Positions 18,271 through 62,786 of a stretch of DNA of 64,000 nucleotides are shown one piece after another. The translations under genes and the position numbers were made by a program. The stretch is from Roseobacter sp. (GTDB taxonomy: Bacteria; Pseudomonadota; Alphaproteobacteria; Rhodobacterales; Rhodobacteraceae), in assembly GCA_002731875.1 (NCBI GenBank), contig PCCY01000007.1, forward strand, positions 22,637-86,636, read 5' to 3'. Below the pieces are notes generated by a model. That model saw only the letters and a program-made list of their open reading frames with translations. It made no database searches and was not told the DNA's origin. Within the stretch, counting starts at the first letter, position 1. Every line of letters starts with the position of its first letter.

Positions 18271-18271
18271 C

Positions 18272-19834: not shown

Positions 19835-20157
19835 GGGGAAATTTGTCGCAATCCACGGGTCAGATCTATTGATGGTAGAAAAATGGTATACGGTGTTGTT
19901 ATTCGAATTCTGTTTGCCGTGTGTCCTTTGTTTCGTTATGCCGAGCCGACAGTATTTTCGAGCGGTTCACACGCTGAATAACTTTGTGAACATAATAACA
20001 ATGCATACGGATTGACCATCTACCCGCAATGGTGAGATGTCACTAACAAACTATGCCTGATCTATGCAGAGGCACCCAACAGGTGCTAGGACTGAACATC
20101 AACCCAGCCTCATAGGGACTTGATAGAACAGAACTTACGTGACCGAGGAAGTTAATA

Positions 20158-23519: not shown

Positions 23520-23531
23520 GCGGTAGCCGTG
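23520..23531 (+). promoter_or_regulatory. ops-like element GCGGTAGCCGTG in the 630-nt leader upstream of the epimerase gene
   Basis: Contains GCGGTAG, the last 7 bases of the 8-base ops core GGCGGTAG (E. coli ops GGCGGTAGCGTG), with a 1-nt longer spacer before TG. It lies on the non-template strand, downstream of the NusG-paralogue gene. The heptamer occurs about 4 times on this strand, so this is weak. Confidence 0.3.
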
Positions 23532-23711
23532 GGTCGATCTCTTGCAGAAGGTGCCATATTCGCGAATTTCTACACTCATTCCCAACCTGAACAAGGTCAG
23601 GTCGGGTCGTTGCCTGGGGCGAACGGGATTGTTTTCCTGCGATCTCTCCGCCGTCTTGGATGGACCACGTCTAAGATAGACTACAATAAAATTGACATCG
23701 GATAAGTTACA

Positions 23712-41625: not shown

Positions 41626-42725
41626 TGCACGAGGTCCTGCACCTCATCCCCTATGACACGGTCGGGGGTGTCGAAACCGCCGCGCGGTCTGTTCCGGCCA
41701 ACTGGGAGGGCGGGGCAGGGGCTGTGCGCTTTCGCCGTGCGTATCTGGTGACGCATTCCGCAGTCGAAGTATTCCCGGACGATTGGCATGGGCCCGCGAC
41801 ATCCGTTAACCACCCTGTCGCACATTGGAAACTGTTGCGATTTGCACTGCAAAGCCGTGCGGATCTGGTCGTCGCATCACTTTGGCGCAGTTGTCCAACA
41901 TTTATCGCGCTCAAGGTGATGCGTCCACGGACGAAGACTGTATTGTTCCTGCATTCGGCAGTAGATGTTCACCTGCTCGACAAGCTGTTCAACCGCGCAG
42001 CAATGATGTTGGCCGATGAGATCTGGGCGGATTCAGCCTCAACCGTTGAGGCGCGTGTTCCCGCCGCGGCGCGCAAGCGGGCCCGGGTGCTTTCCTTCCT
42101 GACACAGCGTCCGCCGGCCCTGCTGGACGTGCCACCAGGTGGTCAGTCACGCGCCGTTACACCAAATTTTGTCTATTGGGGCCGCCTGCAATCTGAAAAG
42201 AATTTGGAACACGCGCTGGCCGTATTTGCGTCTGTTCACGCACTGCTGCCAGATGCCAAGTTCGACATTATCGGTCCGGATCGCGGGGCGCTTGCCCAAC
42301 TTCGGGCACGGGTTGCCGAACTGGGGCTTGATCACGCCGTAAACTTTATTGGTGCGCTGCCGCAAGAGGCACTGATGGCGCGCGCAGACAATTACAGCTT
42401 TTACTTGCAGACAAGTCTTTTTGAAGGGATGGCCATGTCGGTCATAGAAGCGATGGGTATGGGACTGGTTCCGGTCGTGACGCCGGTGGGTGAAATTCCG
42501 TCTTATTGTCAGGATGGCCACACCGGTATTCATGTCACCACCCCCGAGGAAACCGCGCAGCGGGTCGCCGCACTGGTTGCTGCGCCTGGATCCTGGCTTG
42601 CGCTTTCGCGACGTGCCGCCGAAAGATGGGCGCAGGCCAGTCTGTTCCAAGACGATTATCGTGGCGCTTGCAACAATCTTCTGTCGCAGAAGCAATCTAG
42701 GAGAAGCCCTTCATGTGTGGACTAA
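41625..42725 (+). CDS. GT4-family glycosyltransferase
   Basis: FEGMAMSVIEAMGMGLVPVVTPVGE motif. ATG shares one base with the upstream stop. Confidence 0.75.
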   Translation: MHEVLHLIPYDTVGGVETAARSVPANWEGGAGAVRFRRAYLVTHSAVEVFPDDWHGPATSVNHPVAHWKLLRFALQSRADLVVASLWRSCPTFIALKVMRPRTKTVLFLHSAVDVHLLDKLFNRAAMMLADEIWADSASTVEARVPAAARKRARVLSFLTQRPPALLDVPPGGQSRAVTPNFVYWGRLQSEKNLEHALAVFASVHALLPDAKFDIIGPDRGALAQLRARVAELGLDHAVNFIGALPQEALMARADNYSFYLQTSLFEGMAMSVIEAMGMGLVPVVTPVGEIPSYCQDGHTGIHVTTPEETAQRVAALVAAPGSWLALSRRAAERWAQASLFQDDYRGACNNLLSQKQSRRSPSCVD

Positions 42726-44891: not shown

Positions 44892-46505
44892 ATGACAATC
44901 ATTTCCGATCAAAGTTATCATAACAAGACCTCTGCCGGGTGGTTACATTGGGGGCTTTTCTGGCTGGCCGTGACCATAGTTGCGGCCGGAGTGTTCTTTA
45001 GCGCCGGCTTTGATGTATTGCTCGATGCATGGAGCAGACCGGAATACAGTCATGGCCCGCTCATTCCGATACTTTCGGGGCTGATGTTCCTGCGTGAACT
45101 AAAACAATATCCGGCCCAGCCCGGTCCAAAGAGCGATCGTTGGCCAGGTTTGTTCGTTGTTCTAGTGTCTGTCGCAATCGCCGTTACTGGCGTGCTGTTG
45201 AGCGCGGACAGCCTGGTGGCCTATGCTATGATCATCTGGATCGGCGGGATATTGCTGCTTAGTTTTGGCTGGCAGACCGGCAAACATTTTTGGCCTCCGG
45301 TGCTTCATCTGGTCTTTATGCTGCCTCTGCCCGGCATGGTATATTACGAGGTTTCTACCTTTCTTCAGCTCGTCTCCTCCGAGCTTGGGGTGTGGTTTTT
45401 AAGGATTGCAGGGGTACCCGTCTTTCTTGATGGCAACATCATCGACCTCGGAGTGTTGAAGCTGCATGTCGCCGAGGCCTGTTCGGGACTTCGGTACTTG
45501 TTTCCGATCCTCAGCTTCTCTTATGTGTTCGCCTTCCTGTATCAAGGGCCGAAATGGCACAAGGCGCTACTGCTTTTGGCTGCCGCGCCTATCGCAGTGT
45601 TTATGAACTCGGTGCGAATCGCTTTGGCAGGGATCCTGATGCAGCGTTTCGGGGCTGAATGGCTTGAAGGGTTTACCCATTTCTTCGAGGGCTGGGTGAT
45701 ATTCATGGCGAGCGTGTTGATCCTGTTCCTGCTTGCGTGGATTTTGCTGAAACTGAACCCACGCAAGATGGGTTTGACCGAAGCGCTTGATCTCGACACT
45801 CAAAATATCCTGCCGCAAATGTCGCGGGTAAAGCTTGTGCAACCTTCCGCTGCGCTGATCATTGCGGCCGGTCTGATGGTGTTTGCGGCAAGCGCCTGGC
45901 CGCTGGTGCCCGAGCGTACGCATGTCGCACCAGAGCGATTTAGCTTTGCGCTGTTCCCCAAAGAGGTTGGTGCATGGACTCAGTACGGTGACGAACGCCG
46001 GCTGTCACCGGACATCGAAAAGAGCTTGGCCGCCGATGACTATCTTGGGGTACAATACAGCCGGTCCATATCCGCGCCGACCCTCGACTTTTTTACGGCG
46101 TGGTACAAGGATCTGTCAGCCGACGGCGTTCAGCATACTCCGGAAATTTGTCTGCCCGGTGCCGGTTGGGAAATCGCAGAAGTACAGAAGGTCGATCTTT
46201 CCGGCAAGCTGGGACTGGAGACTCCATTCAATGTAAATCGGGTGATCATTCAGAAAGAAGAAGACCGAATGATCGTTTATTACTGGTTTACCCACATGGG
46301 GCGGACGATTCCCAGAAACACCGCCGCCAAATTCAGTGTGCTGACCAGAGGCTTGGTGGCCGGGCGCACAGACGGGGCCATCCTCAGACTGATCAGCCCC
46401 ATCGACAAGGATGAACCGGATGGCGAGGCAAAAGCCGAGGCTGAAATGAACGCTTTGCTGAAAGAGCTTCTTGGCCGACTACCTAGCTTCATACCTGGAG
46501 CTTGA
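44892..46505 (+). CDS. xrtD: exosortase fused to an EpsI-family domain (probably the VPLPA-CTERM-specific XrtD type)
   Basis: Polytopic N-terminal half with HVAEACSGLRYLFP (Cys), FMNSVRIALAG (Arg), THFFEGW (His). C-terminal HTPEICLPGAGW EpsI hallmark. The subtype is inferred from the VPLPA-CTERM substrate at 57149. Confidence 0.8.
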   Translation: MTIISDQSYHNKTSAGWLHWGLFWLAVTIVAAGVFFSAGFDVLLDAWSRPEYSHGPLIPILSGLMFLRELKQYPAQPGPKSDRWPGLFVVLVSVAIAVTGVLLSADSLVAYAMIIWIGGILLLSFGWQTGKHFWPPVLHLVFMLPLPGMVYYEVSTFLQLVSSELGVWFLRIAGVPVFLDGNIIDLGVLKLHVAEACSGLRYLFPILSFSYVFAFLYQGPKWHKALLLLAAAPIAVFMNSVRIALAGILMQRFGAEWLEGFTHFFEGWVIFMASVLILFLLAWILLKLNPRKMGLTEALDLDTQNILPQMSRVKLVQPSAALIIAAGLMVFAASAWPLVPERTHVAPERFSFALFPKEVGAWTQYGDERRLSPDIEKSLAADDYLGVQYSRSISAPTLDFFTAWYKDLSADGVQHTPEICLPGAGWEIAEVQKVDLSGKLGLETPFNVNRVIIQKEEDRMIVYYWFTHMGRTIPRNTAAKFSVLTRGLVAGRTDGAILRLISPIDKDEPDGEAKAEAEMNALLKELLGRLPSFIPGA

Positions 46506-50922: not shown

Positions 50923-52065
50923 TCATAGTCCGTTGTTAGTCGTCAGGCCCGCAGTTCGCGCTGCTCTTACCGAACCGACCAGTACACTGAGTGTTTTTGT
51001 CCATTGTACGTAAGGTGCTTCGGTGACATAAAGCGTATCCCCGTCCCGCATGTCGAAATTCCGCGCAAGGGGAACTCCGTTCGGCTTGGTCAGGTCCAGC
51101 ACGTAGATAATGGTTTTGTCGCTGAGGTGATTGCCGCGGCCAAATCCTTTGATGTCGCTTTTTGCCTGTACGTTGCGGATGACGAACAGACCGGTCGGAT
51201 CGGCGATCGATCCATCCAGACCTCCCACCTGTGCGAGCGCTTGAAGTGCCGACAGATGTCTCATGCCAAACGGTACGTTTGCCTGTAATCCGGTTGCCCC
51301 GAGAACAGTAAACACACGGGGATCACGCTGAACAAGAACACGGTCGCCGGCGTATAGCGCTATGTCGAATTCGGGGCGATCATATATGTCCTCGAACCAT
51401 ATCTCACCTTTGGTATGGTTGCGCAGTACGGTAATGCGCGCCACTTCCGACGGCGCTGTGATCCCGCCTGCGGTGGCCAGCATTTCCATCAACCTGCGAC
51501 TGGACCGCTGGATAGGATAGACGCCTTGCGACGCGATGCCGTCGCCGAGGATCGAGACGGTCGCACCGTCGCCAGGCGCGCGTTGCACCAACACCTGAGG
51601 CTGCGGTGTCTGGATGTTCAGCTTATTTGTAATAATTCGCCGAAGCGCTTCGGGCGTATTGCCTGCGGCGCGAATTCGTCCTGCGTAGGGAATAAAAATG
51701 AAACCGGCTTCATCCACTTGGAGTGCGTTGAGGGTGGCCGCGCCACTGTTGCCTCGGCTTAGCACTCCGTCATCTACGTTCTCGTAAATGGTGAATGACA
51801 GCGTGTCGCCCGGCCGAATTTGGTCAGGAGCAGAGGAGCTACCATCCACGAATACATGAGGAAAGCCGCTGTCAGCTGGAAGAGCCACCGCACGGGTAAC
51901 ATTTTCATCTACCACCACAATTTCGGTATTGCTGTATTTGTCCATTTTGACATCAAGCAGCTCGGCTTTCTTCGGGCCGGAACGTGGTAAGCCGCAAGCA
52001 CCAAGTGCGGATACAAGGACAATAGTAAACAGAATTTTTGTCATTCGAGTAAACAATTGTTTCAT
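50923..52065 (-). CDS. Wza-type outer-membrane polysaccharide export lipoprotein
   Basis: Start at MKQLF (RBS GGAAG). Lipobox LVSALGACG. PGDTLSFTIYE export motif and SLBB-like repeats (GDRVLV, DGDTLYV). Confidence 0.85.
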   Translation of the reverse strand: MKQLFTRMTKILFTIVLVSALGACGLPRSGPKKAELLDVKMDKYSNTEIVVVDENVTRAVALPADSGFPHVFVDGSSSAPDQIRPGDTLSFTIYENVDDGVLSRGNSGAATLNALQVDEAGFIFIPYAGRIRAAGNTPEALRRIITNKLNIQTPQPQVLVQRAPGDGATVSILGDGIASQGVYPIQRSSRRLMEMLATAGGITAPSEVARITVLRNHTKGEIWFEDIYDRPEFDIALYAGDRVLVQRDPRVFTVLGATGLQANVPFGMRHLSALQALAQVGGLDGSIADPTGLFVIRNVQAKSDIKGFGRGNHLSDKTIIYVLDLTKPNGVPLARNFDMRDGDTLYVTEAPYVQWTKTLSVLVGSVRAARTAGLTTNNGL

Positions 52066-52517
52066 ATTATAGCTTCCGTTTCTTTCGGATGACATCGCGC
52101 GCATAGCTCACTGCCAGTATTTTCAAGAAGAATTATTCAACTTCAAATGATTTAAATACATAAAGGTAGAAATTAAGCAATCGCGCGATACACGGATTTC
52201 GAATGTGTTGCAGACGAGGTTCATCTTTTAGGTTCGGCCCGATTGACGCAGGGCCCGAACGGCAACCCCACCGCGGAAAATCCCTTCTCATTTTCCATAG
52301 CGCGGGCGTGAAGCCCGTTTCCCGATACACGCGGTGACGATCAGTTTCGTCCCAGAGTGCGGATTTAGCCTGGATACAAGTGCGATGATGACCCCGGGAC
52401 CAGTGCTGTCAGCCGTCGGGATCAGCGCGTCGCTGCGTTACCTATCACGAATTTTGAGAACGAGCGGCCCGCCAATTAAGGCGAACGCTGCTCGTCAGAT
52501 GTTCTTGTATGATTGGT

Positions 52518-54968
52518 TCAATTCTCGATCGTGGGTGATTTTTGCAGACTTTGAACAAGCGCCCGTGCCTCTTCGATCTGGGGCCGGGTATCGGCTGCTC
52601 CTGCTACCGATACTGCTTTACGAAATTGTTCAAGCGCATCCTGCGGACGGTTTTGGCTGATGTATGCCTGGCCCAAGTGGTACTGAACAATAGCATCCTC
52701 TGGTAGCCCCTTCGCCGCAGCTTCAAGATAGGGTAGGGCTTCGGCGCTGTTTTCACGCCGGTGAAGGATCCAACCAAAGGTATCCATCAATGCCGGGGCA
52801 TTGGCCTCGCGAAATCTACGTGCGATGCTCCAGGCGCGGTTCAGGCTTTCCTCATCCTCGCGATAGGTCGCAAGCAGGCTTGCCAGGTTGTTGGCGACGA
52901 CAATCGAGTTTGAATTGTCTTCATAGAGCGCTTGGTAGATATCAATCGCCCCATCAATGTTCCCGTCCCTTTCGGCCAACGATGCTTTTGCCCAAAGCAG
53001 CTCTGGGTTTTTGGGCAGGTGGCCGAGGCCCTCGTCGATGGTAGCCTCGGCTGCATCGGGATCGCCCTGCCTTAGCTCCAATCGGGATAATTCAAGCCAG
53101 ATTCTGGGTCGGATCGGATTCGTCGCAAGAAGATCACGGTAAAGGGTCGCGGCCGCATCCAGATCACCATTCGCGACTTGGGTCGAGGCCAGCACGAAGT
53201 CCAGCGTTTCGTCGTCGGGGTTTTCGTTTTTCAGCGCCCGCGCGAGGGCGAGGGCACCGGTTTTGTCCTTTATATTTAGCCTAGCGCGAACCAGACCGAT
53301 TTTCGTGGCGAGGTTGGATTCAGCGCCTGTGGCCAAGTCGTCAAGGAAAGACAAGGCCGAGTCGATACCACTCTGTCCACTAAGCCGTTCGGCCTCTATC
53401 CCGTTGGCCGCTTGAATCGCTGCATCGCTTCCAATGCGACGCAGGGTGCCGACGACACCTTGGACGCGATTGAAATCTTCCGTTTGCAGATAGAGCTGAC
53501 CCAGTGTGATCAAGATATCGGTATTGGTCGGGGCAAGCCGCAGAGCCGCCACCAGGATATCCTCGGCCGGGAGATAGCGCTTTTCTCCCATCAGCAACTG
53601 GGCATAGCGAAGCGTTTCCGTTGGAGCGTTGCCGGACGCTTCCACCGCTTGTGCGTAAAAATCCTTGGCCAGTCCGGGCTGACCGGCGCGAGAGTATGCG
53701 TTGGCGATCAGGGTCATTGCCGCAGCGTCTTGTGGATTCTGGTCAAGTGCGGTCCGAAGCGCGCCGGTCGCAGCGTCGGTGTCGTCCGCTTCAATTTGCC
53801 AGGCGGCCTGCATTTTGAGCGCGTCTGGCTGGGTTGGCTGTTCGGTCAGAACTTCCTCTACCAGTGTCCGGGCACCTACGTTGTTCCCCGTGGCAAGAAG
53901 CATCTTGGCAAGCGTTATCTTGAGATCGAGCGACTGATCTGATGGTTCGGCTTTCGACAGCACGTCCTGAAGGGTTGCGATGGCTTCGTCGTGATTTCCG
54001 AGCGAGAATTCGAACCGCGCTTCAATAATCTGGAATGGCACCGGATCAGCGCGTTCCGAGAGAGCCTTGCTGATCTCGGCGCGAACATCCTCGGGGTCAC
54101 GGAATTCCGCCAGAAAGCGGATCAGATCAAGTGTCGGACCGGGATCTTCAGAGCCGGAGGCGACCACCAGATCGCGCAATACGCCCTCTGCCGCATCCAG
54201 ATTATTCCGCGAAACGTAGTATCGGATAAGCGTTTCTCTGTTCGATGGATCATCGGGGAAAATTTTCATCATCTCGCGCAGTTGCGCCTCGACAGCGGTC
54301 TCATCGCCAATCGTTGACAATACTCGAAGGCGCTCTTGATAGTGGCTAAGCTTTGTGGGGTCGAAATCGATCATCCAATCGATTTGTGCCAGTGCTTGCG
54401 TATAATCCTGCTCGCGAAGTGCGTTATCTATAAGAGTGTTTCGCAACAGCACGTTTTCCGGTTGATCGCCAAGCATATCGCTGGCCTTGCTTGCAAGACT
54501 GCGACGGGTACCTGCATCATTATCGTTAATCGCAACCCGGTAACTCCGTACCAGAGCGATGGCTTTTACGCGCGGATTGTCTGGTGCCAATTCCTCGGCG
54601 CGGGAACTATGGCGATCGAACTCGTCCCAGCTTCCCGAGGAAAAAGCCATTTCGGAAAGGATAATGCGGCTGTCAAGATCATCGGGAAACGTCTCGGCGA
54701 GGCGAAGATACTGACGATAGGCCCCTTGCCGGTTGCCTTTTTCCAACAGCAGTTCCGCCAGCGTTTGACGCGCAGCCTTGTGAGTGGCGTCCAAGGTAAC
54801 GGCGTTACGCAGCTCGACCACAGCGCGGTCGATATCTTTTTCAGAGATCAGGACAAGAGCGCTTTGATAATGTTGTTCTGCGCGTTCTTCGACTGAATCG
54901 CAGGCGGATAAAAATAGAGCGCTGCTCAATAGAATGACAGCCGACACCAGGTTTTTGAGGGCGCGCAC
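52518..54968 (-). CDS. prsT: PrsT-like PEP-CTERM-system TPR-repeat lipoprotein
   Basis: GTG start. Lipobox LFLSACDS. 816 aa of back-to-back TPR-like repeats. Sits upstream of the export gene, as in PEP-CTERM loci. Confidence 0.75.
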   Translation of the reverse strand: MRALKNLVSAVILLSSALFLSACDSVEERAEQHYQSALVLISEKDIDRAVVELRNAVTLDATHKAARQTLAELLLEKGNRQGAYRQYLRLAETFPDDLDSRIILSEMAFSSGSWDEFDRHSSRAEELAPDNPRVKAIALVRSYRVAINDNDAGTRRSLASKASDMLGDQPENVLLRNTLIDNALREQDYTQALAQIDWMIDFDPTKLSHYQERLRVLSTIGDETAVEAQLREMMKIFPDDPSNRETLIRYYVSRNNLDAAEGVLRDLVVASGSEDPGPTLDLIRFLAEFRDPEDVRAEISKALSERADPVPFQIIEARFEFSLGNHDEAIATLQDVLSKAEPSDQSLDLKITLAKMLLATGNNVGARTLVEEVLTEQPTQPDALKMQAAWQIEADDTDAATGALRTALDQNPQDAAAMTLIANAYSRAGQPGLAKDFYAQAVEASGNAPTETLRYAQLLMGEKRYLPAEDILVAALRLAPTNTDILITLGQLYLQTEDFNRVQGVVGTLRRIGSDAAIQAANGIEAERLSGQSGIDSALSFLDDLATGAESNLATKIGLVRARLNIKDKTGALALARALKNENPDDETLDFVLASTQVANGDLDAAATLYRDLLATNPIRPRIWLELSRLELRQGDPDAAEATIDEGLGHLPKNPELLWAKASLAERDGNIDGAIDIYQALYEDNSNSIVVANNLASLLATYREDEESLNRAWSIARRFREANAPALMDTFGWILHRRENSAEALPYLEAAAKGLPEDAIVQYHLGQAYISQNRPQDALEQFRKAVSVAGAADTRPQIEEARALVQSLQKSPTIEN

Positions 54969-55281
54969 AGAAAAAGTCCTTAATAATGAATCATTTCGCG
55001 TCAGGAACCGAAAATTGGCCCTGTGTTGTTTGTCGCTGAATTCTAGCCGGTCGGCAAGGCCTTGGTGCCGATAGGAGACTTAGGCGACAATATTGATGCC
55101 ACACGACCGGTTTCAAGAATTTCTGCCCGCGCACGCGGTCACGTTACTGCCGTCCATACCAGTGACCCCCTTGGTTTCGCTCAGGACGGTGTTGCGCTCT
55201 GATAGACCTGCGCCCGCGTCTTTCCCCTAGTAACCGCGAAAGGCCGACAGGTTGGGCTGCCCGTCGTCTGAATAAATTCGT

Positions 55282-55959
55282 TCAGCGGCCCCAACACAGC
55301 GCTGGTTCATTGGCTGGCCACAAATTGCGGGGTAGGAGGGAGATAAACCAGCTTGCTATAAACTTGCTGAACTCGACGAGATCGATGCGCAGTTTATTAT
55401 AGTCGGCAGGGGAATCCGAAATCACCCGCACGACGGATATAGGAGCGATGGTGTGTTGCAACGCAATCGATGCCCGCGCCATATGTGGTTGAGAGGTGAT
55501 AAGAGTGACGGCCTGGATATCCGGCTGAACATCCAGCCAGCATCCCGCTTCAAGCGCGTTCTCAAGCGTTGTATGTGCGTCCGGAGCAAGGACCAGTTTT
55601 CCCGTCGCAATCCAGTCGGTTTGCTGGTCGGTAAGTCCGAATTGCGCAGGAAAGCGTGCGGGCTCAAGCCCCGCATCGCCATTCACGCCAGTGATAAACA
55701 GTCTATCGACCCTGCCCGAAGAAAGCATCTCGAGACCCGATCGAATGCGATCAAAGTCACCCGTGAAAACGATTGCGGTAGAGGGTATGTCACTGCTGAG
55801 CTCGTAAGGTTCGGATCGCGACATGAAGTCGATCAAGAGAAGCCCGATAATAACTGCTGCGATGCCAACCACCGCAAGCAGGCGGAAAAACAGCCCAATA
55901 ATGGCAGAAATCACTGACAAAAGATGCCACCCTTCGAATACGGTCTCATTCTTTTCCAC
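55282..55959 (-). CDS. DUF218/SanA-YdcF family membrane protein (second copy in the window)
   Basis: GTG start. N-terminal TM, AIVFTGDFDRI, LFITGVNG, LITSQPHMARA. Confidence 0.7.
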   Translation of the reverse strand: MEKNETVFEGWHLLSVISAIIGLFFRLLAVVGIAAVIIGLLLIDFMSRSEPYELSSDIPSTAIVFTGDFDRIRSGLEMLSSGRVDRLFITGVNGDAGLEPARFPAQFGLTDQQTDWIATGKLVLAPDAHTTLENALEAGCWLDVQPDIQAVTLITSQPHMARASIALQHTIAPISVVRVISDSPADYNKLRIDLVEFSKFIASWFISLLPRNLWPANEPALCWGR

Positions 55960-56227: not shown

Positions 56228-56914
56228 TCAGGTACGGCGGCGCGCCATGTAATCAAGAAGCAAGGCACCAATCCAACCACCGAGGAATCCTCCTAGATGA
56301 GCTTGCCAGGCAAGTTGGCCGGACATTGCCCACCACATAACAAGGTTCAATGCCACAAGGAGCGCGATAACCTTCGCGACATCTTCTATTCCTTCCCGAA
56401 CGGTGTACCGGTCCATGTATTCCCAGGCCAAAAGCGCACCTAGCAAACCAAACAATGCACCCGATGTGCCGACCATGGGGCGAAGGCCCGGGGCCAACAG
56501 AGCGAAACCCGCGGCACCGCTCAGGCTCGAGGCAACATACAGAAAGGTAAATGTCCCAATGCTTGCTCGCTTCAGTATTGCACGGCCTAAGGACCAAAGG
56601 CTGATCATGTTCACCGAAAGATGTACCAAACCGCCATGCAAAAAGGCGTAGGTGACGAACATCGCATACGGCTGCGCGAGATAATTGGGTTTCCAGTTCC
56701 CAAGTAGCCCCGGCCAAAAAGCGCCGTAATCATAGGCCAGTGGACGCAAACGGACAGGCCCGAGCGCGCCAGAGTCAGCAAGGCTCAAGGTGATCTCGAT
56801 CACGCAGTACACAGCAATCATGCTGTAAAGGAACTGATTTTTCGGTTTCAGCGCGGTCTCCAGCGTCTGGGTGGCAACCGGACGCCGAAGTTGCCTCTGT
56901 TTCGCCCGATACAT
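56228..56914 (-). CDS. rhomboid-family intramembrane serine protease
   Basis: Six TM helices. HGGLVHLSVNM, catalytic GTSGALFGLLGA and HLGGFLGGW. ATG 56914 has RBS GGAGAAG (GTG 56926 is the alternative). Confidence 0.8.
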   Translation of the reverse strand: MYRAKQRQLRRPVATQTLETALKPKNQFLYSMIAVYCVIEITLSLADSGALGPVRLRPLAYDYGAFWPGLLGNWKPNYLAQPYAMFVTYAFLHGGLVHLSVNMISLWSLGRAILKRASIGTFTFLYVASSLSGAAGFALLAPGLRPMVGTSGALFGLLGALLAWEYMDRYTVREGIEDVAKVIALLVALNLVMWWAMSGQLAWQAHLGGFLGGWIGALLLDYMARRRT

Positions 56915-57005
56915 GATCTTCTCCACCTAAGTGACGTGGTATGCAACCCGCACGAAGCTCGGTTACACATAGTACCGAGGAAAACACTCCCAGCTAGCCG
57001 ACGCG

Positions 57006-57045
57006 AGCCTTATTCTAGCCTTATTTTCACCTTATTCTGTTGACA
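57006..57045 (+). promoter_or_regulatory. three phased 11-bp direct repeats (AGCCTTATTCT / AGCCTTATTTT / CACCTTATTCT) abutting a TTGACA -35 hexamer
   Basis: The repeats at 57006-57038, with an exact 11-nt period, are seen directly. TTGACA at 57040-57045, then GATAAC after 16 nt. Lies about 100 nt upstream of the VPLPA-CTERM gene. Promoter/activator-site function is inferred. Confidence 0.5.
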
Positions 57046-57148
57046 GCGCGGGTTTCGAAGCGATAACGTCATAGAAGGTAAAACTATTTTTAGAATCGCC
57101 TGCTGTGTAAATTAAGCATTCACAGCGGTATTATTGGGGGAAGTTATT

Positions 57149-57964
57149 ATGAATATGAAGTTTTCGTTAACACTAGCGGCGCTTGTTGCGTTTGCGGCAC
57201 CAGCCGCAATGGCCGCCACAATTGTGGTGGATGATTTTACCACCCCGGGGGGTGTTTTTTCCAATGGTGGCGGTAACCCGGACACGGCAGCATTTGCTGG
57301 ACCCGGCATTATCGGTGGTGAACGTTATATGTGGGTTTCTACAGATACGTTTCCTGATCCACGCTTTGGCACTCAGTTTGAGGCAACCGGCGGTGGGTTG
57401 AACTTTACCAACGGCACCGGTGCCAGAGGGCAAGCGGTTCTCGTATATGATGGCCCAGGAACACCGGCAACTACTACACCGTTTACGTTTAAAGACCTTC
57501 CGCAGCCGCCCTTTGCCAGCAGTACTTCTGCTGATATCCCGGTCAATGTAACCGGTCTGGGGGGTGTGGATTTGCTCGCCATTGGCGGTACAACCGCAAG
57601 CACCAAGTTCTCGTTCGAACTCAACAGCTTCGACGCTGGAGGTTCACTTGATTTCTACGCTTATGCGTTCGATCAAAGCGGGCGCATTGCAACCTACTTC
57701 GAGAATTTGACCAACCCCGGCGGTCAGATCAGCTTCAGCACCGATCTGCGTTTGGATCAATTCAATGATCCTTCCGGGATTGATTGGACAGACATCGGCG
57801 CACTTGCTTTCGCTGTTGAGTCCCGCACATTTGAATTCGATGGAGCAATCGGTTCGATCAGTGTCGTACCGCTTCCAGCTTCCGCATTCCTGCTTCTTGG
57901 CGGATTGGGCGGCCTTGCCGGTATGTCGTCGGCAGCAAGACGCCGTCGTCGTCGTCAGGCCTGA
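57149..57964 (+). CDS. secreted VPLPA-CTERM (PEP-CTERM variant) sorting-signal protein
   Basis: Signal peptide MNMKFSLTLAALVAFAAPAAMA. C-terminus VVPLPASAFLLLGGLGGLAGMSSAARRRRRRQA = motif + TM helix + Arg cluster. RBS GGGGGAAG. Confidence 0.85.
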   Translation: MNMKFSLTLAALVAFAAPAAMAATIVVDDFTTPGGVFSNGGGNPDTAAFAGPGIIGGERYMWVSTDTFPDPRFGTQFEATGGGLNFTNGTGARGQAVLVYDGPGTPATTTPFTFKDLPQPPFASSTSADIPVNVTGLGGVDLLAIGGTTASTKFSFELNSFDAGGSLDFYAYAFDQSGRIATYFENLTNPGGQISFSTDLRLDQFNDPSGIDWTDIGALAFAVESRTFEFDGAIGSISVVPLPASAFLLLGGLGGLAGMSSAARRRRRRQA

Positions 57965-58016
57965 GCCACAAGAATTTAACCCGGGACGAAACGCCCCGGG
58001 TCAGATATCAAAGAAG

Positions 58017-58047
58017 CCACGGCAAGCATCGCTTGTCGTGGTTTTTT
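58017..58047 (+). terminator. rho-independent terminator after the VPLPA-CTERM gene
   Basis: CCACGGCAAGC atc GCTTGTCGTGG (11-bp stem with one G-U pair) followed by TTTTTT. Confidence 0.7.
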
Positions 58048-58591
58048 CGTTTGGCGGCGCTGATGCTTTGGCACCTTTCTGCCCCAAACACACAGCGTGC
58101 CGGACCGACCCGATAGCTGACAAGCCCGAAGTCCATGCATTTGAATGTTCACGAATCACAAGTCGGCGGATTGTTCCCAATATTTTTTAATTTGCGCGAG
58201 ATCTCGCTGAACGTGTGCCATAATGCTCGTGCAAACGTCATCGCAATGCTATCAACCCGAGACACCAATTTAATACAACGATACGCAGTGATGAAAGGAC
58301 GAGCAATGTTCACGACCGGCCGCGCAATAATGTTATCAAGCCGCAGACATAATCGAGAGCGGCGTTGTTTTACTGGCGTTTCGGCAATTCTAATCTCACG
58401 TACCGAGACCTGCGCCCAGTACGAACCTGGGACAACTCTTGCGTTTAGAAGATTTTGAAATGATTCGTATTCTAAACAACACGGGAAGCGCGGAAACAAC
58501 TTGCAAGCGAAAAATCCGTTTTTTGCCCTATTAATGCCCAACTTTGTTGTGAGCTTAGGTTCAACAACCTTTTATTGGACACTTGAGAAGA

Positions 58592-61252
58592 ATGGAAAGC
58601 ATGATGAACGGACTGAACCCTACCCGTGCGCGCCTTTTGGAAACCTTCGGCCTGGATGTAGAACTGACCCGGGGCGATGGCTGTAAGCTTTACGATGCCG
58701 CAGGACGTGAGTACCTCGATTTTCTATCGCAGTATGGCGCGTTGCCTTTTGGTCATAATCCCTCCCAGATCTGGAAGGCACTGAACCTTCAGCAAGAGGC
58801 TATGCAACCTGTTATGGTACAGCCTTTGCGCGCCGTCGGAGCAGAGCGTTTGGCCAACCGGCTGGCCAGCATTACCCCACATGATCTTAGTGTGGTTTCG
58901 TTGGCTAATTCTGGTGCCGAAGCAGTCGAAGCCGCGATCAAGCTTGCACGTGCTCGAAGCGGTCGGGATATCATTCTCTCCACTCACAACGGGTTTCACG
59001 GTAAGACCATGGGTGCCTTGTCCGCGACAGGTAAGCCGATGTACCAAAAGGACTTTGGCGGACCGGCTCGAGACTTTGAATATATCGCGTTCGGCGATAT
59101 TGAGGACCTCGAAGCTAAGCTCGAAGCCGACCATGGCTCTATCGCCGCGTTTATTGTGGAGCCAATCCAAGGCGAAGGCGGGGTGGTCTGCCCGGCTGAC
59201 GATAGTTATCTTAATGATGTCATCGCACTATGCCGCAAGTACGGCGTGCTGAGCATCATCGACGAAATCCAGACCGGGTTAGGCCGGACTGGCCGACTTT
59301 TTGCGTGTGAGGAATGCGAACAAGCACCGGATATGCTGCTGCTCGGTAAAGCATTGGGCGGAGGTTTGATGCCAATTTCTGCCGTTGTTGTCAGACCTGA
59401 GGTCTGGGATGATCGCTTCGGGCTCCTACATAGCTCGACTTTTGCGAACAACAACCTTGCCTGCGCGGCAGCTAATGCGACATTGGATCTTATTCTTGAT
59501 GATGACAGAGCCTTTATCAAAGATATCGCGCAAAACGGTGACTATTTCCAAGAACAGTTGGAAGCACTCAAGGATCGTTATCCCGGGGTATTGATCGACG
59601 TTCGCGGAAGGGGTTACATGCGCGCCCTCGAGTTCCGTAAACCGGTAGAGCGCGCCGATTCAGCATCGATGGCATTTTGCGGATTAAACGGCGGATTTAT
59701 CGGGCTGTTGAGCTCGTACCTTCTTAACGTAGAGGGAGTGTTAACGGCTCCTGTCTTCAATGATGCCAAAGTAATGCGTTTGCAGCCGCCCCTTATTGCG
59801 GGTCGTGCCGAAATCGACCGGTGCATTTCCGCGCTGGACTCCGTATGCGGCGTGCTGAACCGTGGTGATTACCACATGCTCATGCGGCACCTTGTGACGC
59901 CTGAGCGGCGGGAACAATTGGAACATACAGCACCGACTGCGCCTCAGCAGGGTCCGGCCCGCGACGTGCCGGGATCTGCTCCAGGCAGATTCTGTTTCCT
60001 TATCCATTACACGCAGGAAGCGGATCTTTTGCGTTCCGATCCATCCTTCGCAAACTTTACTGCCGAAGAACGATCCACGTGGCTTGAATGGGTGAAGCGG
60101 GTTGGACCCGGGTTCGCATGGCCGGTATCAGGGGGCACCTCGCGCGACGGAAGCACGACCGAAGGAATGATCATGTCCGTCCCGCTCTTGCCTACCGACA
60201 TGATGGGGAAAGGCCGCAGAGAAGCCCGAGGCATGATCCAGGCCTCGGCTGGCATCGCCGCCGAATTTGGCGCAAGTCGACTAGGTCTTGGGGCGTTTAC
60301 GTCAATCGCCACCAATGGAGGTGCCGCAGTAGCTGGCCGCGGCGTGCCGGTCACCAGCGGCAACACCCTAACCACCGTGTCTGGCGTGACGGCGCTCGAA
60401 CGGGCTGCATGGCGTGCCGGTATTGATCCGGCCACCGCGAATGTTGTCGTCGTCGGCGCTACCGGAGCAATTGGTCGGTTGGCAAGCCTGATGCTCGCCC
60501 GCCGAGCAAATCAGCTAACCCTGGTAGGGAACGCCAGCAACAGGCAGGCTCAGCAATTCCTGGACCGCGTCACGGATGAAGTGGTGCACATGCTGTCGAA
60601 CGAGCACCCGTCTCCAAGCGCAGGGGGATTGAACCGTTGCGTACGCGAATATCTTGAACCGCAAGGTGATGAGATGACCAAGGGTGTGGCAAATGAATTC
60701 GCTCGTGCCTGTGCCGAACGCGGCAGATCCGTTCCCATTACCGCGACCACTGATTTGAGCAAAGCGCTCGCGACCGCAGATCTGGTGCTGGTGGCGACCA
60801 GCGCAGAGGTTACTTTCCTCGATCCGACGCAACTGCGTCCCGGCACAGTCGTATGCGATGTGGCGCGCCCCCCGAACGTGGCACATGCCGATCTTACGGA
60901 AAACGGGGTGCTCGTTTTCGACGGTGGCTTGGTCACACCCCCATTCCCGGTAAACCTTGGACCTTTCCAGAACCTCCCGGAAGATCTTTGCTGGGGCTGT
61001 CTCGGCGAGACGATGCTGTTGGCGCTTGAAGGCGAGACCGATGATTACAGTCTGGGACGCGACCTGAGCCTTGTGGACGCTGACCGTATATCAGAAATGG
61101 CCCGCCGCCACGGCTTTGAGCCTGCCGAGCCACAATGGTATGGTAAGTCATTGACCGATAGCGATTTTAAGCGTGTGGCAATGGCAGTAAGCCAGCGACG
61201 GAAAGCAGAGTATCGCTCCAAGAAGTCTGCGAAAATTTGGGCGGCAGAATAA
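58592..61252 (+). CDS. class-III (omega) aminotransferase fused to an acyl-ACP-reductase (AAR)-like NAD(P)-binding domain
   Basis: N-terminal half: SGAEAVEAAIKLAR, DEIQTGLGRTG, LLLGKALGGG (PLP Lys). P/A-rich linker. C-terminal half: FCFLIHY, LGLGAFTSI, TSGNTLT, VVVVGATGAIG, GCLGETMLLALEG, RHGFEP parallel cyanobacterial AAR as I recall it. Start ATG 58592 (58601/58604 possible). Confidence 0.8.
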   Translation: MESMMNGLNPTRARLLETFGLDVELTRGDGCKLYDAAGREYLDFLSQYGALPFGHNPSQIWKALNLQQEAMQPVMVQPLRAVGAERLANRLASITPHDLSVVSLANSGAEAVEAAIKLARARSGRDIILSTHNGFHGKTMGALSATGKPMYQKDFGGPARDFEYIAFGDIEDLEAKLEADHGSIAAFIVEPIQGEGGVVCPADDSYLNDVIALCRKYGVLSIIDEIQTGLGRTGRLFACEECEQAPDMLLLGKALGGGLMPISAVVVRPEVWDDRFGLLHSSTFANNNLACAAANATLDLILDDDRAFIKDIAQNGDYFQEQLEALKDRYPGVLIDVRGRGYMRALEFRKPVERADSASMAFCGLNGGFIGLLSSYLLNVEGVLTAPVFNDAKVMRLQPPLIAGRAEIDRCISALDSVCGVLNRGDYHMLMRHLVTPERREQLEHTAPTAPQQGPARDVPGSAPGRFCFLIHYTQEADLLRSDPSFANFTAEERSTWLEWVKRVGPGFAWPVSGGTSRDGSTTEGMIMSVPLLPTDMMGKGRREARGMIQASAGIAAEFGASRLGLGAFTSIATNGGAAVAGRGVPVTSGNTLTTVSGVTALERAAWRAGIDPATANVVVVGATGAIGRLASLMLARRANQLTLVGNASNRQAQQFLDRVTDEVVHMLSNEHPSPSAGGLNRCVREYLEPQGDEMTKGVANEFARACAERGRSVPITATTDLSKALATADLVLVATSAEVTFLDPTQLRPGTVVCDVARPPNVAHADLTENGVLVFDGGLVTPPFPVNLGPFQNLPEDLCWGCLGETMLLALEGETDDYSLGRDLSLVDADRISEMARRHGFEPAEPQWYGKSLTDSDFKRVAMAVSQRRKAEYRSKKSAKIWAAE

Positions 61253-61388
61253 TAATCCATTTCAATATGGCAACCGCCTTGTTCATCGGCACACAGGCAG
61301 CCTGAACATCTACCTCCAGGAGGACGAAGAATCCAAGACCTTGGATTTAGCCCGCTCACTCCGTGTATCTATCTCGCGCGGTAGAATT

Positions 61389-61886
61389 TCACGGAGACTG
61401 ACCGCTACTCACTTTGGCACCACTGCTGTTGTCGCATAAGTTTACGTCAGTAGCCGGAAGCATATGAACCATAAACCATGCGACGCTTGTGTTAGCTTCC
61501 CAGACGACAAATGCTCCCAGTGGACGATAGCGAATGGCGAGGGCGGCACGACGATAGGTGGGAACAGTCACATAGTTTCGGGAAGCGGAATAGTATCGAG
61601 ATAAATCGCTGTTGAGCATGACCCACTTTTGTCCCGCCCGCGGTATTTGTTTAAACCACTTTCCGTTCAAAGACGCCCGGTCTGTCCCGTCCGAGAAGTG
61701 AATGGCGACGACGCGGCTTGTGGAAGCGCATATACAACCAAAGATCGCCATCTCAGCTTGCCGCCTGTAATCGAAAACCGCCTCCAGATCAGTGCGGCCG
61801 TGACGGTTTTGAAGAAGGTGAGGAGGATCAGAAAACAGTCCGGGGGTCCGTTGTCCGTACGTAAACTGGCTGCGGTATTCTAACAA
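61389..61886 (-). CDS. hypothetical protein (165 aa), coding status uncertain
   Basis: Longest ORF in the 61.3-61.9 kb gap. No recognisable motif and no convincing RBS seen. Confidence 0.3.
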   Translation of the reverse strand: MLEYRSQFTYGQRTPGLFSDPPHLLQNRHGRTDLEAVFDYRRQAEMAIFGCICASTSRVVAIHFSDGTDRASLNGKWFKQIPRAGQKWVMLNSDLSRYYSASRNYVTVPTYRRAALAIRYRPLGAFVVWEANTSVAWFMVHMLPATDVNLCDNSSGAKVSSGQSP

Positions 61887-61984
61887 CTTCCTTCACCGCT
61901 CACTGAGGCTCTGAGTTCGTGCCAGCGCGATACCCTTTGATTGCATTGGCCCGAATTTGTCGGAGACCATCAACACAACCAAGA

Positions 61985-62760
61985 ATGATGGTTATGACAT
62001 AAAGCAAAATATCTGTTCGCCAGATGCCCGCGCCCGGGCGGTCCTAACGGAGATCGGACATCAAGGCCCATACGAAACACAGGCAGGCGGGATGGTGGGC
62101 GTTGGACGCATGACTGGCCGTTTTCCCAGACGTTGCGCGGATAGGTCAAGCAGCCGAGAAGACCAAAGCCATGCGCGACGAAGTGACAGTCGAGAAACGT
62201 GATCTCATCAAGTCGTCTGAACGAGAGAACCGTGAACTGTCCCACCCGAATGAATTTCTCCGCTAATCATCGCCACATTTTGCGCCTCCCTCGCGCATGA
62301 CATCATGCGTTGCTGGGCAGCGGACGGAAACTCGACCGCTCATTGAAACGATAATTGCCTTAATTGAGGGGCAGCGCACAACTTGCGGCGTCGGGTCGAT
62401 CAGCGGGGTGCGGCTGATTGCACCGTCTATATATTTCCGCCACCTGGCATGCATCGCTGATCGAACTCACGCCTGGGCGAGGCATCAGCGGGATATGGAG
62501 CTGCGTTTCGAGATCAACAGGCTCCTGGATGAGAACGGCCGGATGATTGAGGTGCCCAAGTGTAGACGTCAAATGAAACGTGACGGCGTCGAGAGGTCCG
62601 GATGCGCAGTTGAAAGAGTGATGAAGCAAATCGGTATGTGGGGTGAACGCGTCATCTCGGACGGGGCGATCCGGGTTTGCGGCGTGTTGACCTTGATGGG
62701 GACCAACGAACTGGTTGATCTGCTGGCAATTGGACAGAAACCTCTAAGCCTGGCGATGTG
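61985..62760 (+). mobile_element. decayed IS3-family element (orfA with in-frame stops, orfA/orfB junction, N-terminal part of orfB)
   Basis: SPDARARAVL..., QTLRG*VKQ, SERENRELSHPNEFLR* (leucine-zipper tail). Then IAPSIYFRHLA...HQRDMELRFEINRLLDENGRMIEVPKCRRQMKRDGVERSGCAVERVMKQIGMWG. All are typical IS3 landmarks, but the frames are broken and the DDE core is missing. Confidence 0.65.
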
Positions 62761-62786
62761 ACGTGATGTGATGTGATGTGATGTGA
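62755..62786. repeat. pentanucleotide microsatellite, (GTGAT)4-5 with an imperfect 5' extension
   Basis: gatgtgacGTGATGTGATGTGATGTGATGTGA read directly, at the junction of the two IS remnants. Confidence 0.9.

Follow-up and report, generated by a model that had tools for sequence, protein, structure and literature searches.

In the Rhodobacterales, an enzyme that joins a class-III aminotransferase to a thioester reductase (TA-TR) is inherited together with a CBM-like VPLPA-CTERM surface protein, a predicted substrate of the exosortase XrtD, the two genes forming one module. The module sits inside an XrtD-exopolysaccharide (EPS) locus, as in the window analysed here (the whole stretch of 64,000 nucleotides of Roseobacter sp. 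DNA), or elsewhere in the genome. The conserved adjacency of the enzyme gene to an exosortase substrate is the new result here, and the enzyme extends the characterised TamH/PigE class into a large Rhodobacterales family. The features of the window are collected in Table 1.

Table 1. Features of the enzyme-partner module and its surroundings in the window.
Feature	Position	Strand	Basis
XrtD, exosortase specific for VPLPA-CTERM and fused to an EpsI domain; the partner's cognate sortase	44892..46505	+	TIGR04152, 598.9 bits vs cut-off 400
EPS-export block between XrtD and the enzyme-partner module	50923..55959	-	profile matches; order identical in locus L001
Polysaccharide export protein	50923-52104	-	EPS-export block
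PrsT-like TPR protein	52518-54968	-	EPS-export block
DUF218	55282-55959	-	EPS-export block
Rhomboid-family protease gene, divergent from partner gene	56228..56926	-	PF01694 1.6e-27; TIGR03902 at 37 bits, under its cut-off of 84
Partner gene: secreted 271-aa protein, signal peptide, CBM-like beta-sandwich, VPLPA-CTERM sorting signal	57149..57964	+	sequence, TIGR03370, model pLDDT 88.8, Foldseek
Intergenic region/leader of fusion gene	57965..58591	.	GC 0.46-0.50; kept only in closest relatives
Intrinsic terminator of partner gene, hairpin and U-run	58011..58050	+	MFE -43.1 kcal/mol, z -5.7; first hairpin 57978-58003
TA-TR fusion gene, 886 aa, stop included	58592..61252	+	ORF analysis and orthologue alignment
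Class-III (omega) aminotransferase domain, N-terminal, residues 23-417	58658..59842	+	PF00202, PDB matches, Foldseek
Lys253 codon, predicted PLP Schiff-base lysine	59348..59350	+	aligns with Lys of PigE LMLSKSLSGG; invariant in 45 orthologues
Pro/Ala-rich interdomain linker, residues 446-465	59927..59986	+	sequence; pLDDT 56 for residues 451-460
AAR-like thioester reductase domain, C-terminal, ~residues 463-851	59978..61144	+	PigE N-terminal domain 8.4e-34, S. elongatus AAR 3.1e-15, TIGR04058 1e-19
GATGAIG, nucleotide-binding GxxGxxG (G622, G625, G628)	60455..60475	+	aligns with AAR vvGATGdIG; invariant in 45 orthologues
Cys803 codon, predicted acyl-enzyme nucleophile	60998..61000	+	aligns with Cys of AAR aCFAEAMLLEFEG and PigE gCMAETIVLALE; invariant in 45 orthologues

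Conserved pairing with a VPLPA-CTERM protein

The genome scan gave 52 Rhodobacterales loci with the enzyme gene. A family-specific VPLPA-CTERM partner gene lay directly beside it, 53-1463 nt away, in 41 of these 52 loci, all of which belong to one order, so that the adjacencies are not fully independent events. The partner was called with a family HMM (E <= 1e-40), and this HMM-based number is the trusted count; neighbour clustering on longest-ORF calls was discarded, as the partner family came out split (25 loci) and a spurious family of antisense ORFs appeared (13 loci). The pair occurs in four arrangements, with the partner upstream on the same strand, downstream and convergent, upstream and divergent, or downstream on the same strand. 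Most loci show the convergent layout, and the two genes there are therefore not co-transcribed. The next commonest genuine neighbour family was present in at most nine loci.

The pair is not bound to the exosortase locus. In 33 of the 41 pairs no XrtD-locus gene was present in the flanks examined, and H. massiliensis OT1 carries the pair on plasmid pOT1-1 but its XrtD locus on another, pOT1-6. When the plasmid collection was searched from the side of the partner, the strong matches were exactly the three enzyme-bearing Rhodobacterales plasmids, and one weaker match was found elsewhere, in Palleronia (30% identity, 2e-7).

The partner was missing in 11 of the 52 loci, of which 4-7 had truncated or short flanks. 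All three full-flank loci without it (L009, L014 and L015) lie within XrtD-EPS loci, and in L014 a different VPLPA-CTERM gene is divergently adjacent to the enzyme gene.

These patterns bear on the explanation that the amine goes to a lipid or secondary metabolite unrelated to the exosortase, and that the adjacency reflects shared regulation, a niche function (surface or biofilm) or inherited synteny. It is in line with the common convergent orientation, which excludes an operon, with the existence of XrtD systems that have no enzyme, and with the settings of related proteins: the TA-TR protein of locus L073 is in a lipid context, while TamH and PigE belong to pyrrole-alkaloid clusters. But the pair is kept through four arrangements, varied flanks and varied replicons with no other conserved neighbour, the full-flank loci without the partner lie inside XrtD loci, and on plasmids the co-occurrence of enzyme and partner family is reciprocal. 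We regard this explanation as unlikely.

Enzyme and XrtD distribution

XrtD was found on 25 plasmids of the collection against only three Rhodobacterales plasmids with the enzyme, co-occurrence being known at the plasmid level only, and well-known XrtD hosts were not among the genome-scan results for the enzyme. It means that the XrtD system works without the enzyme, and that the enzyme, being less widespread than XrtD, is an accessory module and not a core part. The exosortase link, put forward in the initial annotation as speculation on one adjacency, holds in one part: the adjacency in 41 of 52 loci supports a functional association, but the enzyme cannot be the general source of the XrtD acceptor, because many XrtD plasmids are without it.

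In the window itself, XrtD is 100% identical to the XrtD of a Sulfitobacter sp. MAG. The rhomboid-family gene is conserved within the window-like clade, and an amidotransferase and acyltransferases are also encoded within the EPS locus.

Partner gene and intergenic region

The C-terminus of the partner is composed of VPLPAS, a hydrophobic helix and RRRRRRQA, with the motif ...SVVPLPASAFLLLGGLGGLAGMSSAARRRRRRQA visible. The TIGR03370 score was 19.1 bits, under the cut-off of 25.35, and NCBI names the homologues VPLPA-CTERM. In Foldseek the partner model matched CBM11, CBM61, CBM22, CBM30 and CIA30-like beta-sandwiches with low TM values (0.23-0.47), and "CBM-like" is used here as a description of the fold, with no functional assignment.

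The fusion gene was described as having its own AT-rich leader of about 540 nt behind the VPLPA-CTERM gene and its terminator, and this was borne out. The two genes are 627 nt apart, with about 540 nt of this gap lying past the terminator, and the GC content of the gap, 0.46-0.50, compares with 0.55-0.64 in the fusion gene. A conserved regulatory RNA in the 627-nt leader was considered and rejected, since Rfam (E <= 1) gave no known RNA family in 56900-62300 and nhmmer against all loci gave two weak matches, both to close relatives. No common promoter or operator motif was found by k-mers in 50 upstream regions of the enzyme and 38 of the partner; the best 8-mer was present in 9 of 50.

The fusion gene and its aminotransferase domain

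ORF analysis of the window gave one unbroken reading frame (58583/58592-61252, +). Candidate ATG starts are 58592, 58601 and 58604, the latter two giving 883 and 882 aa, and the 100%-identical protein in public gene calls has 882 aa, implying the start at 58604. Every motif quoted in the initial annotation is present in the translation: SGAEAVEAAIKLAR (residues 107-120), DEIQTGLGRTG (224-234) and LLLGKALGGG (249-258, with Lys253) in the aminotransferase half; TAPTAP...GSAPG (446-465) in the linker; and FCFLIHY (467-473), LGLGAFTSI (564-572), TSGNTLT (588-594), VVVVGATGAIG (618-628), GCLGETMLLALEG (802-814, with Cys803) and RHGFEP (839-844) in the reductase.

The frame is not a misjoining of two genes. 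Homologues that are full-length and collinear form more than 120 clusters (56-100% identity, 860-910 aa), which together with the 52 genomic loci rules out a chimeric ORF or mis-assembly. The Rhodobacterales family is now annotated merely as "aminotransferase class III-fold PLP-dependent enzyme", so that a large family is uniformly mis-described.

The class-III assignment of the N-terminal half was confirmed with Pfam, where PF00202 (Aminotran_3) matched residues 23-417 with positions 11-401 of its 403 at 313.8 bits (E 1.9e-93; cut-off 30.5), and Lys253 was invariant in 45 orthologues. The best PDB matches were the aminotransferase domain of PigE (4ppm, 1.5e-74) and putrescine aminotransferase YgjG, with target-normalised Foldseek TM values of 0.72-0.85 to both; the domain is nearest to PigE, putrescine and acetylornithine aminotransferases. 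The AlphaFold model of the whole fusion protein had a pLDDT of 84.6. The top 50 matches of the whole-protein Foldseek search were to aminotransferases only, and the reductase fold is unsupported by that search.

The reductase domain

The C-terminal 436 aa matched the PigE NCBIfam model at 1.4e-51, with the best stretch at model positions 206-369 of 837, in the N-terminal half. PDB matches were 4ppm (PigE, 8.4e-34) and the S. elongatus AAR structures 6jzu/6jzq (3.1e-15). The acyl-ACP reductase model TIGR04058 gave 71.1 bits (1e-19), well under its cut-off of 449.7, and by these scores the domain is placed as a TIGR04058 homologue, not an equivalog. The AAR parallels given in the initial annotation were reproduced in the HMMER alignment to 6jzu (salggftsi, tTGNThT, vavvgatgdig, rhgfqp), and the proposed acyl-enzyme Cys fell on the Cys at acfaeamllefeg. 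The aligned stretch of 6jzu leaves out FCFLIHY/FGLIGHL.

The 150 best cluster representatives for the reductase domain included 61 TA-TR proteins and 13 more in which TA-TR comes with extra domains. The TA-TR protein of locus L073 lies among genes for a fatty-acid hydroxylase, a desaturase, MMPL and a permease; it was rejected as a TamH orthologue, as these are not tam genes.

Would the C-terminal half rather be a shikimate dehydrogenase, glutamyl-tRNA reductase (GluTR) or FolD-like domain with a chance Cys, or the frame a chimeric assembly, so that no true bifunctional enzyme exists? Pfam gave the half only weak matches to Shikimate_DH (PF01488, 25.7 bits) and THF_DHG_CYH_C (25.2 bits), on residues 710-766 in the Rossmann part, and reported no AAR-family match there. 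The GluTR match was marginal (E 1.4e-5 in NCBIfam, 5e-3 in PDB), with 22.2 bits for TIGR01035 against a cut-off of 209.55. The PigE and AAR matches are far better than the GluTR match and extend over the N-terminal subdomain as well as the C-terminal part with the Cys, and so another Rossmann family was rejected; neither shikimate dehydrogenase nor GluTR aligns better. With collinear homologues, and with the Cys and GxxGxxG invariant, the chance that there is no true enzyme is next to negligible.

Predicted chemistry

The route from thioester to aldehyde to primary amine, as predicted in the initial annotation, is well supported by homology, and PtTamH and PigE carry it out experimentally (PMC9594044, PMC8341465). 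The product of the fusion gene would be a cytoplasmic TamH-type bifunctional enzyme. By homology with its relatives, Cys803 of the AAR-like domain would take the acyl group from a thioester carrier, most likely acyl-ACP and possibly acyl-CoA; the acyl-enzyme would be reduced by NAD(P)H at the GATGAIG Rossmann site, letting the aldehyde go; and the aminotransferase, with PLP on Lys253, would turn the aldehyde into a primary amine with an amino acid as donor.

No ACP, adenylating enzyme (TamA-type ANL-ACP) or pyrrole gene was found in the window, and none is conserved across the 52 loci. The lack of a dedicated ACP or adenylating enzyme nearby would suit a short polar acyl-CoA substrate (e.g. 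succinyl-, malonyl- or glutaryl-CoA), giving an omega-amino acid or small amine that decorates the exopolysaccharide, and so would the closeness of the aminotransferase domain to enzymes of polar substrates (PigE, putrescine and acetylornithine aminotransferases) and the amidotransferase and acyltransferases encoded in this EPS locus. Against this, the characterised relatives of the reductase (AAR, TamH, PigE) all use medium- or long-chain acyl thioesters, and we think such a substrate very unlikely. PtTamH does not accept acyl-CoA (PMC9594044) and reductase activity was absent from purified PigE (PMC8341465), and given these results the reductase domain may need a specific carrier.

The enzyme might also run in the catabolic direction, from amine through aldehyde to acyl thioester, bringing an environmental alkylamine or polyamine into metabolism. 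Transamination is reversible, and YgjG, the closest stand-alone aminotransferase, does run from amine to aldehyde; yet the characterised AAR-family domains are all reductive, no transporter or catabolic gene is a neighbour, and the sole conserved neighbour is a secreted sorting-signal protein. This direction is highly improbable.

Proposed role

We consider it probable that the family is a TamH-type amine-forming enzyme, co-inherited with its partner, which serves the envelope biology of the partner or of the XrtD-EPS system as an accessory to XrtD. The amine would act there as an anchor, an acceptor or a decoration. A narrower form, which we hold to be quite unlikely, is that the amine (probably long-chain, and either free or as part of a lipid or glycan) is the nucleophile of XrtD at the periplasmic face of the inner membrane and resolves the acyl-enzyme formed with the partner. 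If this were true, the partner would end in a lipid-like N-alkyl-amide anchor at its C-terminus or be linked to exopolysaccharide, and the amine would be the first acceptor of an exosortase to be identified, supplied by an accessory enzyme specific to one cargo.

The PEP-CTERM/exosortase system was reportedly described in 2006, and to our knowledge its acceptor molecule has not been identified since. An amine-forming enzyme beside exosortase cargo matters for this reason, and because the related sorting systems T9SS and rhombosortase use amine acceptors. An enzyme of this kind, which stays beside the same sorting-signal protein through changes of genus, gene order and replicon, is a testable candidate supplier of the acceptor. 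Should the acceptor role prove wrong, the family would still offer a candidate natural biocatalyst from fatty acid to amine, apparently working without a dedicated carrier protein.

Comparison with known systems

For exosortase, the proposal is that the new C terminus of the cargo is joined to an unidentified compound (PMC7468200). T9SS cargo is amide-bonded to a seryl/glycyl amine on a linking sugar, and V. cholerae rhombosortase cargo, as cited in the same paper, is joined to a glycerophosphoethanolamine-containing moiety (PMC7468200). The likeness is an analogy at the level of systems, pointing to a possible purpose of an amine-forming enzyme encoded next to sorting-signal cargo, and neither of these systems has a TA-TR enzyme.

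A likeness in chemistry is given by GluTR-GSAM of the C5 tetrapyrrole pathway, a comparison drawn by Couturier et al. (PMC8341465): a Cys-dependent, NADPH-driven reduction of an activated acyl group gives an aldehyde, and this passes by channelling to a class-III PLP enzyme. GluTR-GSAM differs in being two separate proteins acting on Glu-tRNA.

The AAR of Synechococcus elongatus (orf1594; 6jzu/6jzq/6jzy) shares with the C-terminal domain the equivalent of Cys294, GxxGxxG and RHGF(Q/E)P. It is a stand-alone protein of 340 aa, whose aldehyde is passed to the deformylating oxygenase ADO and becomes alkanes, whereas the reductase domain in the window is part of a fusion and has an extra helical insert of about 60 aa after the second Rossmann strand.

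PigE of Serratia acts in the MAP pathway of prodigiosin (Couturier et al. 2021, PMC8341465). Its substrate is 3-acetyloctanoyl thioester, which PigE lysate converted to a cyclised amine product, a dihydropyrrole (PMC8341465). Both of its domains are homologous to those of the window enzyme and are their best PDB and NCBIfam matches (aminotransferase 1.5e-74, reductase 8.4e-34), and the proposed reduce-then-transaminate logic and the equivalent Cys are shared. The window protein scored 552.6 bits with the PigE equivalog model NF053554, below the cut-off of 850. In PigE the reductase is N-terminal, that is, the order is reversed, as seen from the aminotransferase falling on positions 385-737 of NF053554 and the best reductase stretch on 206-369.

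The initial annotation took the architecture to be uncharacterised, which is wrong, because PtTamH of Pseudoalteromonas tunicata matches the window enzyme in domain order, GxxGxxG and Cys and forms a fatty amine (PMC9594044). In the tambjamine YP1 pathway (Richardson et al. 2022, PMC9594044), PtTamH with TamA-ACP converted C12 acid to C12 amine (dodecylamine), with the aldehyde intermediate detected; it is NADH-specific and has K340, G707xxGxxG and C887 as motifs (PMC9594044). In both enzymes a class-III omega-transaminase stands at the N-terminus and an AAR-like thioester reductase at the C-terminus, joined by a linker of at most about 50 aa, and the PLP lysine, GxxGxxG and catalytic Cys are present in each; this likeness is drawn from the published description, and the 35% identity over 871 aa, collinear, is with another Pseudoalteromonas TA-TR protein. 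PtTamH is encoded in a bipyrrole cluster and receives its substrate from the dedicated ANL-ACP protein TamA, whereas the window enzyme has neither, and the gene kept beside it is that of the VPLPA-CTERM surface protein, within or close to an XrtD-EPS locus.

The fusion enzyme

The initial annotation had proposed a fusion of a class-III aminotransferase with an acyl-ACP reductase (AAR)-like domain. The ORF was intact with 886 amino acids, all quoted motifs were found in place, and both domains were recognized by profile and solved-structure matches. The earliest possible start is a TTG at 58583, additional ATG codons are at 58601 and 58604, and the identical protein in public gene calls has 882 amino acids.

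By Pfam, the class-III aminotransferase domain spans residues 23-417, with a score of 313.8 bits. The top NCBIfam match of the whole protein was PigE with 552.6 bits, under the cut-off of 850. The final 436 residues were searched separately as the C-terminal domain, and matched the PigE model (1.4e-51; the best stretch was model positions 206-369 of 837, in the N-terminal half) and TIGR04058, the cyanobacterial acyl-ACP reductase equivalog (1e-19), with marginal matches to glutamyl-tRNA reductase (GluTR) and FolD-type models. Among solved structures the order was PigE (4ppm, 8.4e-34), Synechococcus AAR (6jzu/6jzq, 3.1e-15) and GluTR (5e-3), so no better fit to another Rossmann family was found. 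In the alignments GATGAIG of the fusion protein pairs with GATGDIG of AAR, and Cys803 pairs with the acyl-enzyme Cys of both AAR and PigE. Lys253, G622/G625/G628 and Cys803 were invariant in an alignment of 45 homologues. The AlphaFold model based on this alignment is confident (mean pLDDT 84.6) and has two folded halves with a low-confidence linker between them.

More than 120 protein clusters (860-910 aa, 56-100% identity) are collinear with the entire fusion protein, which refutes a mis-assembly of two genes. An artefact or a wrong family assignment is refuted by these clusters, by PigE and AAR matches far above GluTR and by the conserved Cys803, and its probability is practically nil. Within the gene (58650-61050) the aminotransferase half has a GC content of 0.51-0.55, which steps up to 0.59-0.64 over the reductase half.

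The named clusters belong to Rhodobacterales (Marinovum, Marivita, Roseovarius, Sulfitobacter, Thalassococcus, Jannaschia, Paracoccus, Rhodovulum, Palleronia and Pseudorhodobacter), and their sole annotation is "aminotransferase class III-fold PLP-dependent enzyme". A census of the reductase domain in 1.84 billion cluster representatives gave 2433 relatives. Among the best 150 of them, 61 were aminotransferase-thioester reductase (TA-TR) fusions and 13 were TA-TR with extra domains; 54 had the reductase only (including fragments) and 21 the reductase with something else. The architecture had been thought uncharacterised, which is wrong: the TA-TR fusion is common, as these counts show, and PtTamH has already been characterised. 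The TA-TR pair also occurs in larger proteins of about 1400 aa (P0165, P0187, P0208), 1530-1600 aa (P0185, P0193, P0227, P0244) and 2624 aa (P0204), lengthened either by about 520 aa at the C-terminus or by long stretches at the N-terminus.

Gene surroundings and the partner protein

The fusion gene stands at the end of a large exopolysaccharide (EPS) locus containing dTDP-sugar genes, an EpsG-type polymerase, glycosyltransferases, an ABC exporter, a WbpS-like amidotransferase, the VPLPA-CTERM-specific exosortase XrtD, an XrtA-type ATPase, a chain-length determinant, a tyrosine kinase, a polysaccharide export protein, a PrsT-like TPR protein, DUF218 and a rhomboid protease. Just downstream of the fusion gene are an unannotated ORF and an IS3-family transposase fragment, near which the locus seems to end. 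Veith et al. connected the eps_aminotran_1/WbpS family with the synthesis of linking sugars to which T9SS cargo is attached. Nowhere in the 64-kb window was an acyl carrier protein or an adenylating enzyme found.

Features in the window and in compared loci
Sequence	Feature	Position	Strand	Remark
Window	Flavin-containing amine oxidoreductase	16412-17752	-	PF01593, 8.4e-72; inside EPS region, ~41 kb from fusion enzyme
Window	Asparagine-synthase-like amidotransferase, eps_aminotran_1/WbpS type	42713-44683	+	TIGR03108, 494 bits (cut-off 816.9); directly upstream of XrtD
Window	XrtD	44892-46505	+	TIGR04152, 598.9 bits (cut-off 400)
Window	Rhomboid-family protease	56228-56926	-	Divergent relative to partner gene
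Window	VPLPA-CTERM partner	57149-57964	+	271 aa
Window	Fusion gene	58592-61252	+	886 aa
Window	Unannotated ORF	61389-61886	-	165 aa
Window	IS3-family transposase fragment	62297-62761	+	E 2e-4
L084	Rhomboid-family protease	5947-6639		Adjoins VPLPA-CTERM gene
L084	XrtE (VPEID-CTERM) and XrtD	1678-3252 and 22734-24338		Flank the enzyme-partner pair
L086	Rhomboid-family protease	19229-19915		Adjoins VPLPA-CTERM gene
L001	Unrelated VPLPA-CTERM proteins	14668-15306, 16247-17011	-	Few kb from enzyme
L036	Unrelated VPLPA-CTERM proteins	13473-14276, 20622-21227		Few kb from enzyme
L058	TA-TR locus	8504-13071		Outside Rhodobacterales
L073	TA-TR locus	8546-20343		Outside Rhodobacterales
L083	TA-TR locus	8522-12449		Outside Rhodobacterales

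The gene immediately upstream of the fusion gene encodes the partner and is followed by a strong terminator. The 627-nt intergenic region before the fusion gene had no Rfam match, and its conservation was limited to the closest relatives. The partner is secreted, and its C-terminus consists of VPLPAS followed by a hydrophobic helix and an Arg-rich tail; neither a Pfam domain nor a specific NCBIfam model matched its family. Its AlphaFold model is confident (pLDDT 88.8), with a signal peptide, a beta-sandwich and a C-terminal helix, and in Foldseek showed only weak likeness (TM 0.23-0.47) to CBM11, CBM61, CBM22, CBM30, the CBM-like domain of GH50 agarases and CIA30. "CBM-like" names the predicted fold of the partner alone, not its function.

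The rhomboid gene beside a VPLPA-CTERM gene was also seen in 8 window-like loci, beside XrtD on plasmid pOT1-6 of Haematobacter massiliensis, and on the XrtD/XrtE plasmid of Rhodovulum sp. P5. It scored only 37 bits with the rhombosortase model (cut-off 84); perhaps it acts as a further processing protease in the XrtD/VPLPA-CTERM system.

A conserved enzyme-partner module

Scanning one genome per bacterial species yielded 52 orthologous loci. All are Rhodobacterales-like and have 49-84% identity over the reductase domain; beyond them, in other phyla, identity shows a sharp fall to at most 35%. With an HMM from relatives of the upstream protein (E <= 1e-40), a partner family member was found directly adjoining the enzyme gene in 41 loci. 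It raises the exosortase link, which had been offered as a speculation, to a conserved genomic association. The partner is downstream and convergent in the majority of loci (gap 53-355 nt), upstream on the same strand in the window-like clade (420-675 nt), upstream and divergent in Paracoccus and Haematobacter (690-1460 nt), and downstream on the same strand in one locus. Among the 11 loci without partner, four sequences end near the enzyme gene and four have just 1.6-2.1 kb upstream. The remaining three have full flanks and are embedded in XrtD-EPS loci, and in one of these (L014) another VPLPA-CTERM gene divergently adjoins the enzyme. Further unrelated VPLPA-CTERM genes lie close by in L001 and L036, and the enzyme region tends to gather XrtD substrates.

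Annotated complete plasmids independently confirm the module. In Rhodovulum sp. P5 (pRGUI04, 64 kb; L084) the convergent pair lies between a tyrosine kinase and XrtD. H. massiliensis OT1 has the divergent pair on pOT1-1 amid cobalamin genes, and XrtD with its EPS genes on pOT1-6; in Pseudorhodobacter turbinis XrtD and the pair are also on separate replicons. Searching the plasmid collection from the partner side, the strong matches were exactly the three enzyme-carrying plasmids.

XrtD-locus genes were seen in the examined flank of no more than 13 among the 52 loci, which leaves 33 pairs with no such gene detected close by, and no other genuine neighbour family was common to more than nine loci. 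It is conceivable, though unlikely, that the enzyme has an unrelated lipid or metabolite role and the synteny with the partner is co-inherited. The conserved adjacency suggests that the enzyme is likely tied in function to the partner and thereby to the XrtD system; the manner of this tie we can only infer.

TA-TR proteins outside Rhodobacterales had no partner of this family at the loci examined, and their recurring neighbours are different. Pseudoalteromonas has genes for a fatty-acid hydroxylase, a desaturase, an MMPL transporter and an amino-acid permease of the APC type there; a Sulfurifustaceae MAG has an APC permease as well, and a Pirellulales MAG a FemAB-like/GNAT protein (VimA-related family). 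Two loci labelled as Verrucomicrobia (L006) and Sphingomonas (L044) MAGs are of the Rhodobacterales enzyme-partner type, L006 being 80% identical with rhomboid/DUF218/TPR synteny as in the window; these contigs are probably mis-binned.

Proposed function

By homology, the enzyme very probably converts an acyl thioester via the aldehyde to a primary amine, as the initial annotation had predicted. The reductase domain would take the acyl group from the thioester onto Cys803 and reduce it with NAD(P)H to the aldehyde, which the transaminase domain, carrying its PLP on Lys253, would turn into the amine. Catabolic reversal of the enzyme is very unlikely.

A locally made long-chain amine had been suggested, as a speculation, as the exosortase acceptor or a polymer decoration. 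XrtD was on 25 plasmids and the enzyme on only three Rhodobacterales plasmids, and classic XrtD hosts were absent among the 52 loci. Therefore the module is accessory and cannot supply the XrtD acceptor generally. Cargo of the V. cholerae rhombosortase gains a glycerophosphoethanolamine-containing moiety (cited in PMC7468200), a pattern that a cargo-specific amine from the fusion enzyme would fit. By this analogy such an acceptor could be imagined, yet it is unlikely; the enzyme is cytoplasmic and its product would have to get to the periplasmic face. In the searchable literature the conserved pairing of this enzyme with an exosortase substrate is undescribed, and it is worth an experiment.

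Comparison with PigE and PtTamH

PigE combines an AAR-like thioester reductase at its N-terminus (Cys296) with a class-III transaminase at its C-terminus, and lysates containing it convert a 3-acetyloctanoyl thioester to a cyclised amine (Couturier et al. 2021, PMC8341465). Its domain order is reversed relative to the fusion protein of the window.

In PtTamH a linker of about 50 aa joins an N-terminal class-III omega-transaminase (K340) to an AAR-like reductase at the C-terminus (G707xxGxxG, C887). Paired with TamA, an ANL-ACP protein, PtTamH converts dodecanoic acid to dodecylamine using NADH and L-Glu, with the aldehyde intermediate detected, and it refuses acyl-CoA (Richardson et al. 2022, PMC9594044). 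The substrates of the characterised relatives are ACP-bound acyl chains of medium or long length. The family of the window enzyme is without a dedicated carrier, so this part must fall to the housekeeping acyl-ACP or to an acyl-CoA. That the substrate is a short polar acyl-CoA and the product decorates the EPS is quite unlikely. The architecture of PtTamH equals that of the fusion protein, and its chemistry equals the predicted one. The fusion enzyme is a new member of an already characterised enzyme class.
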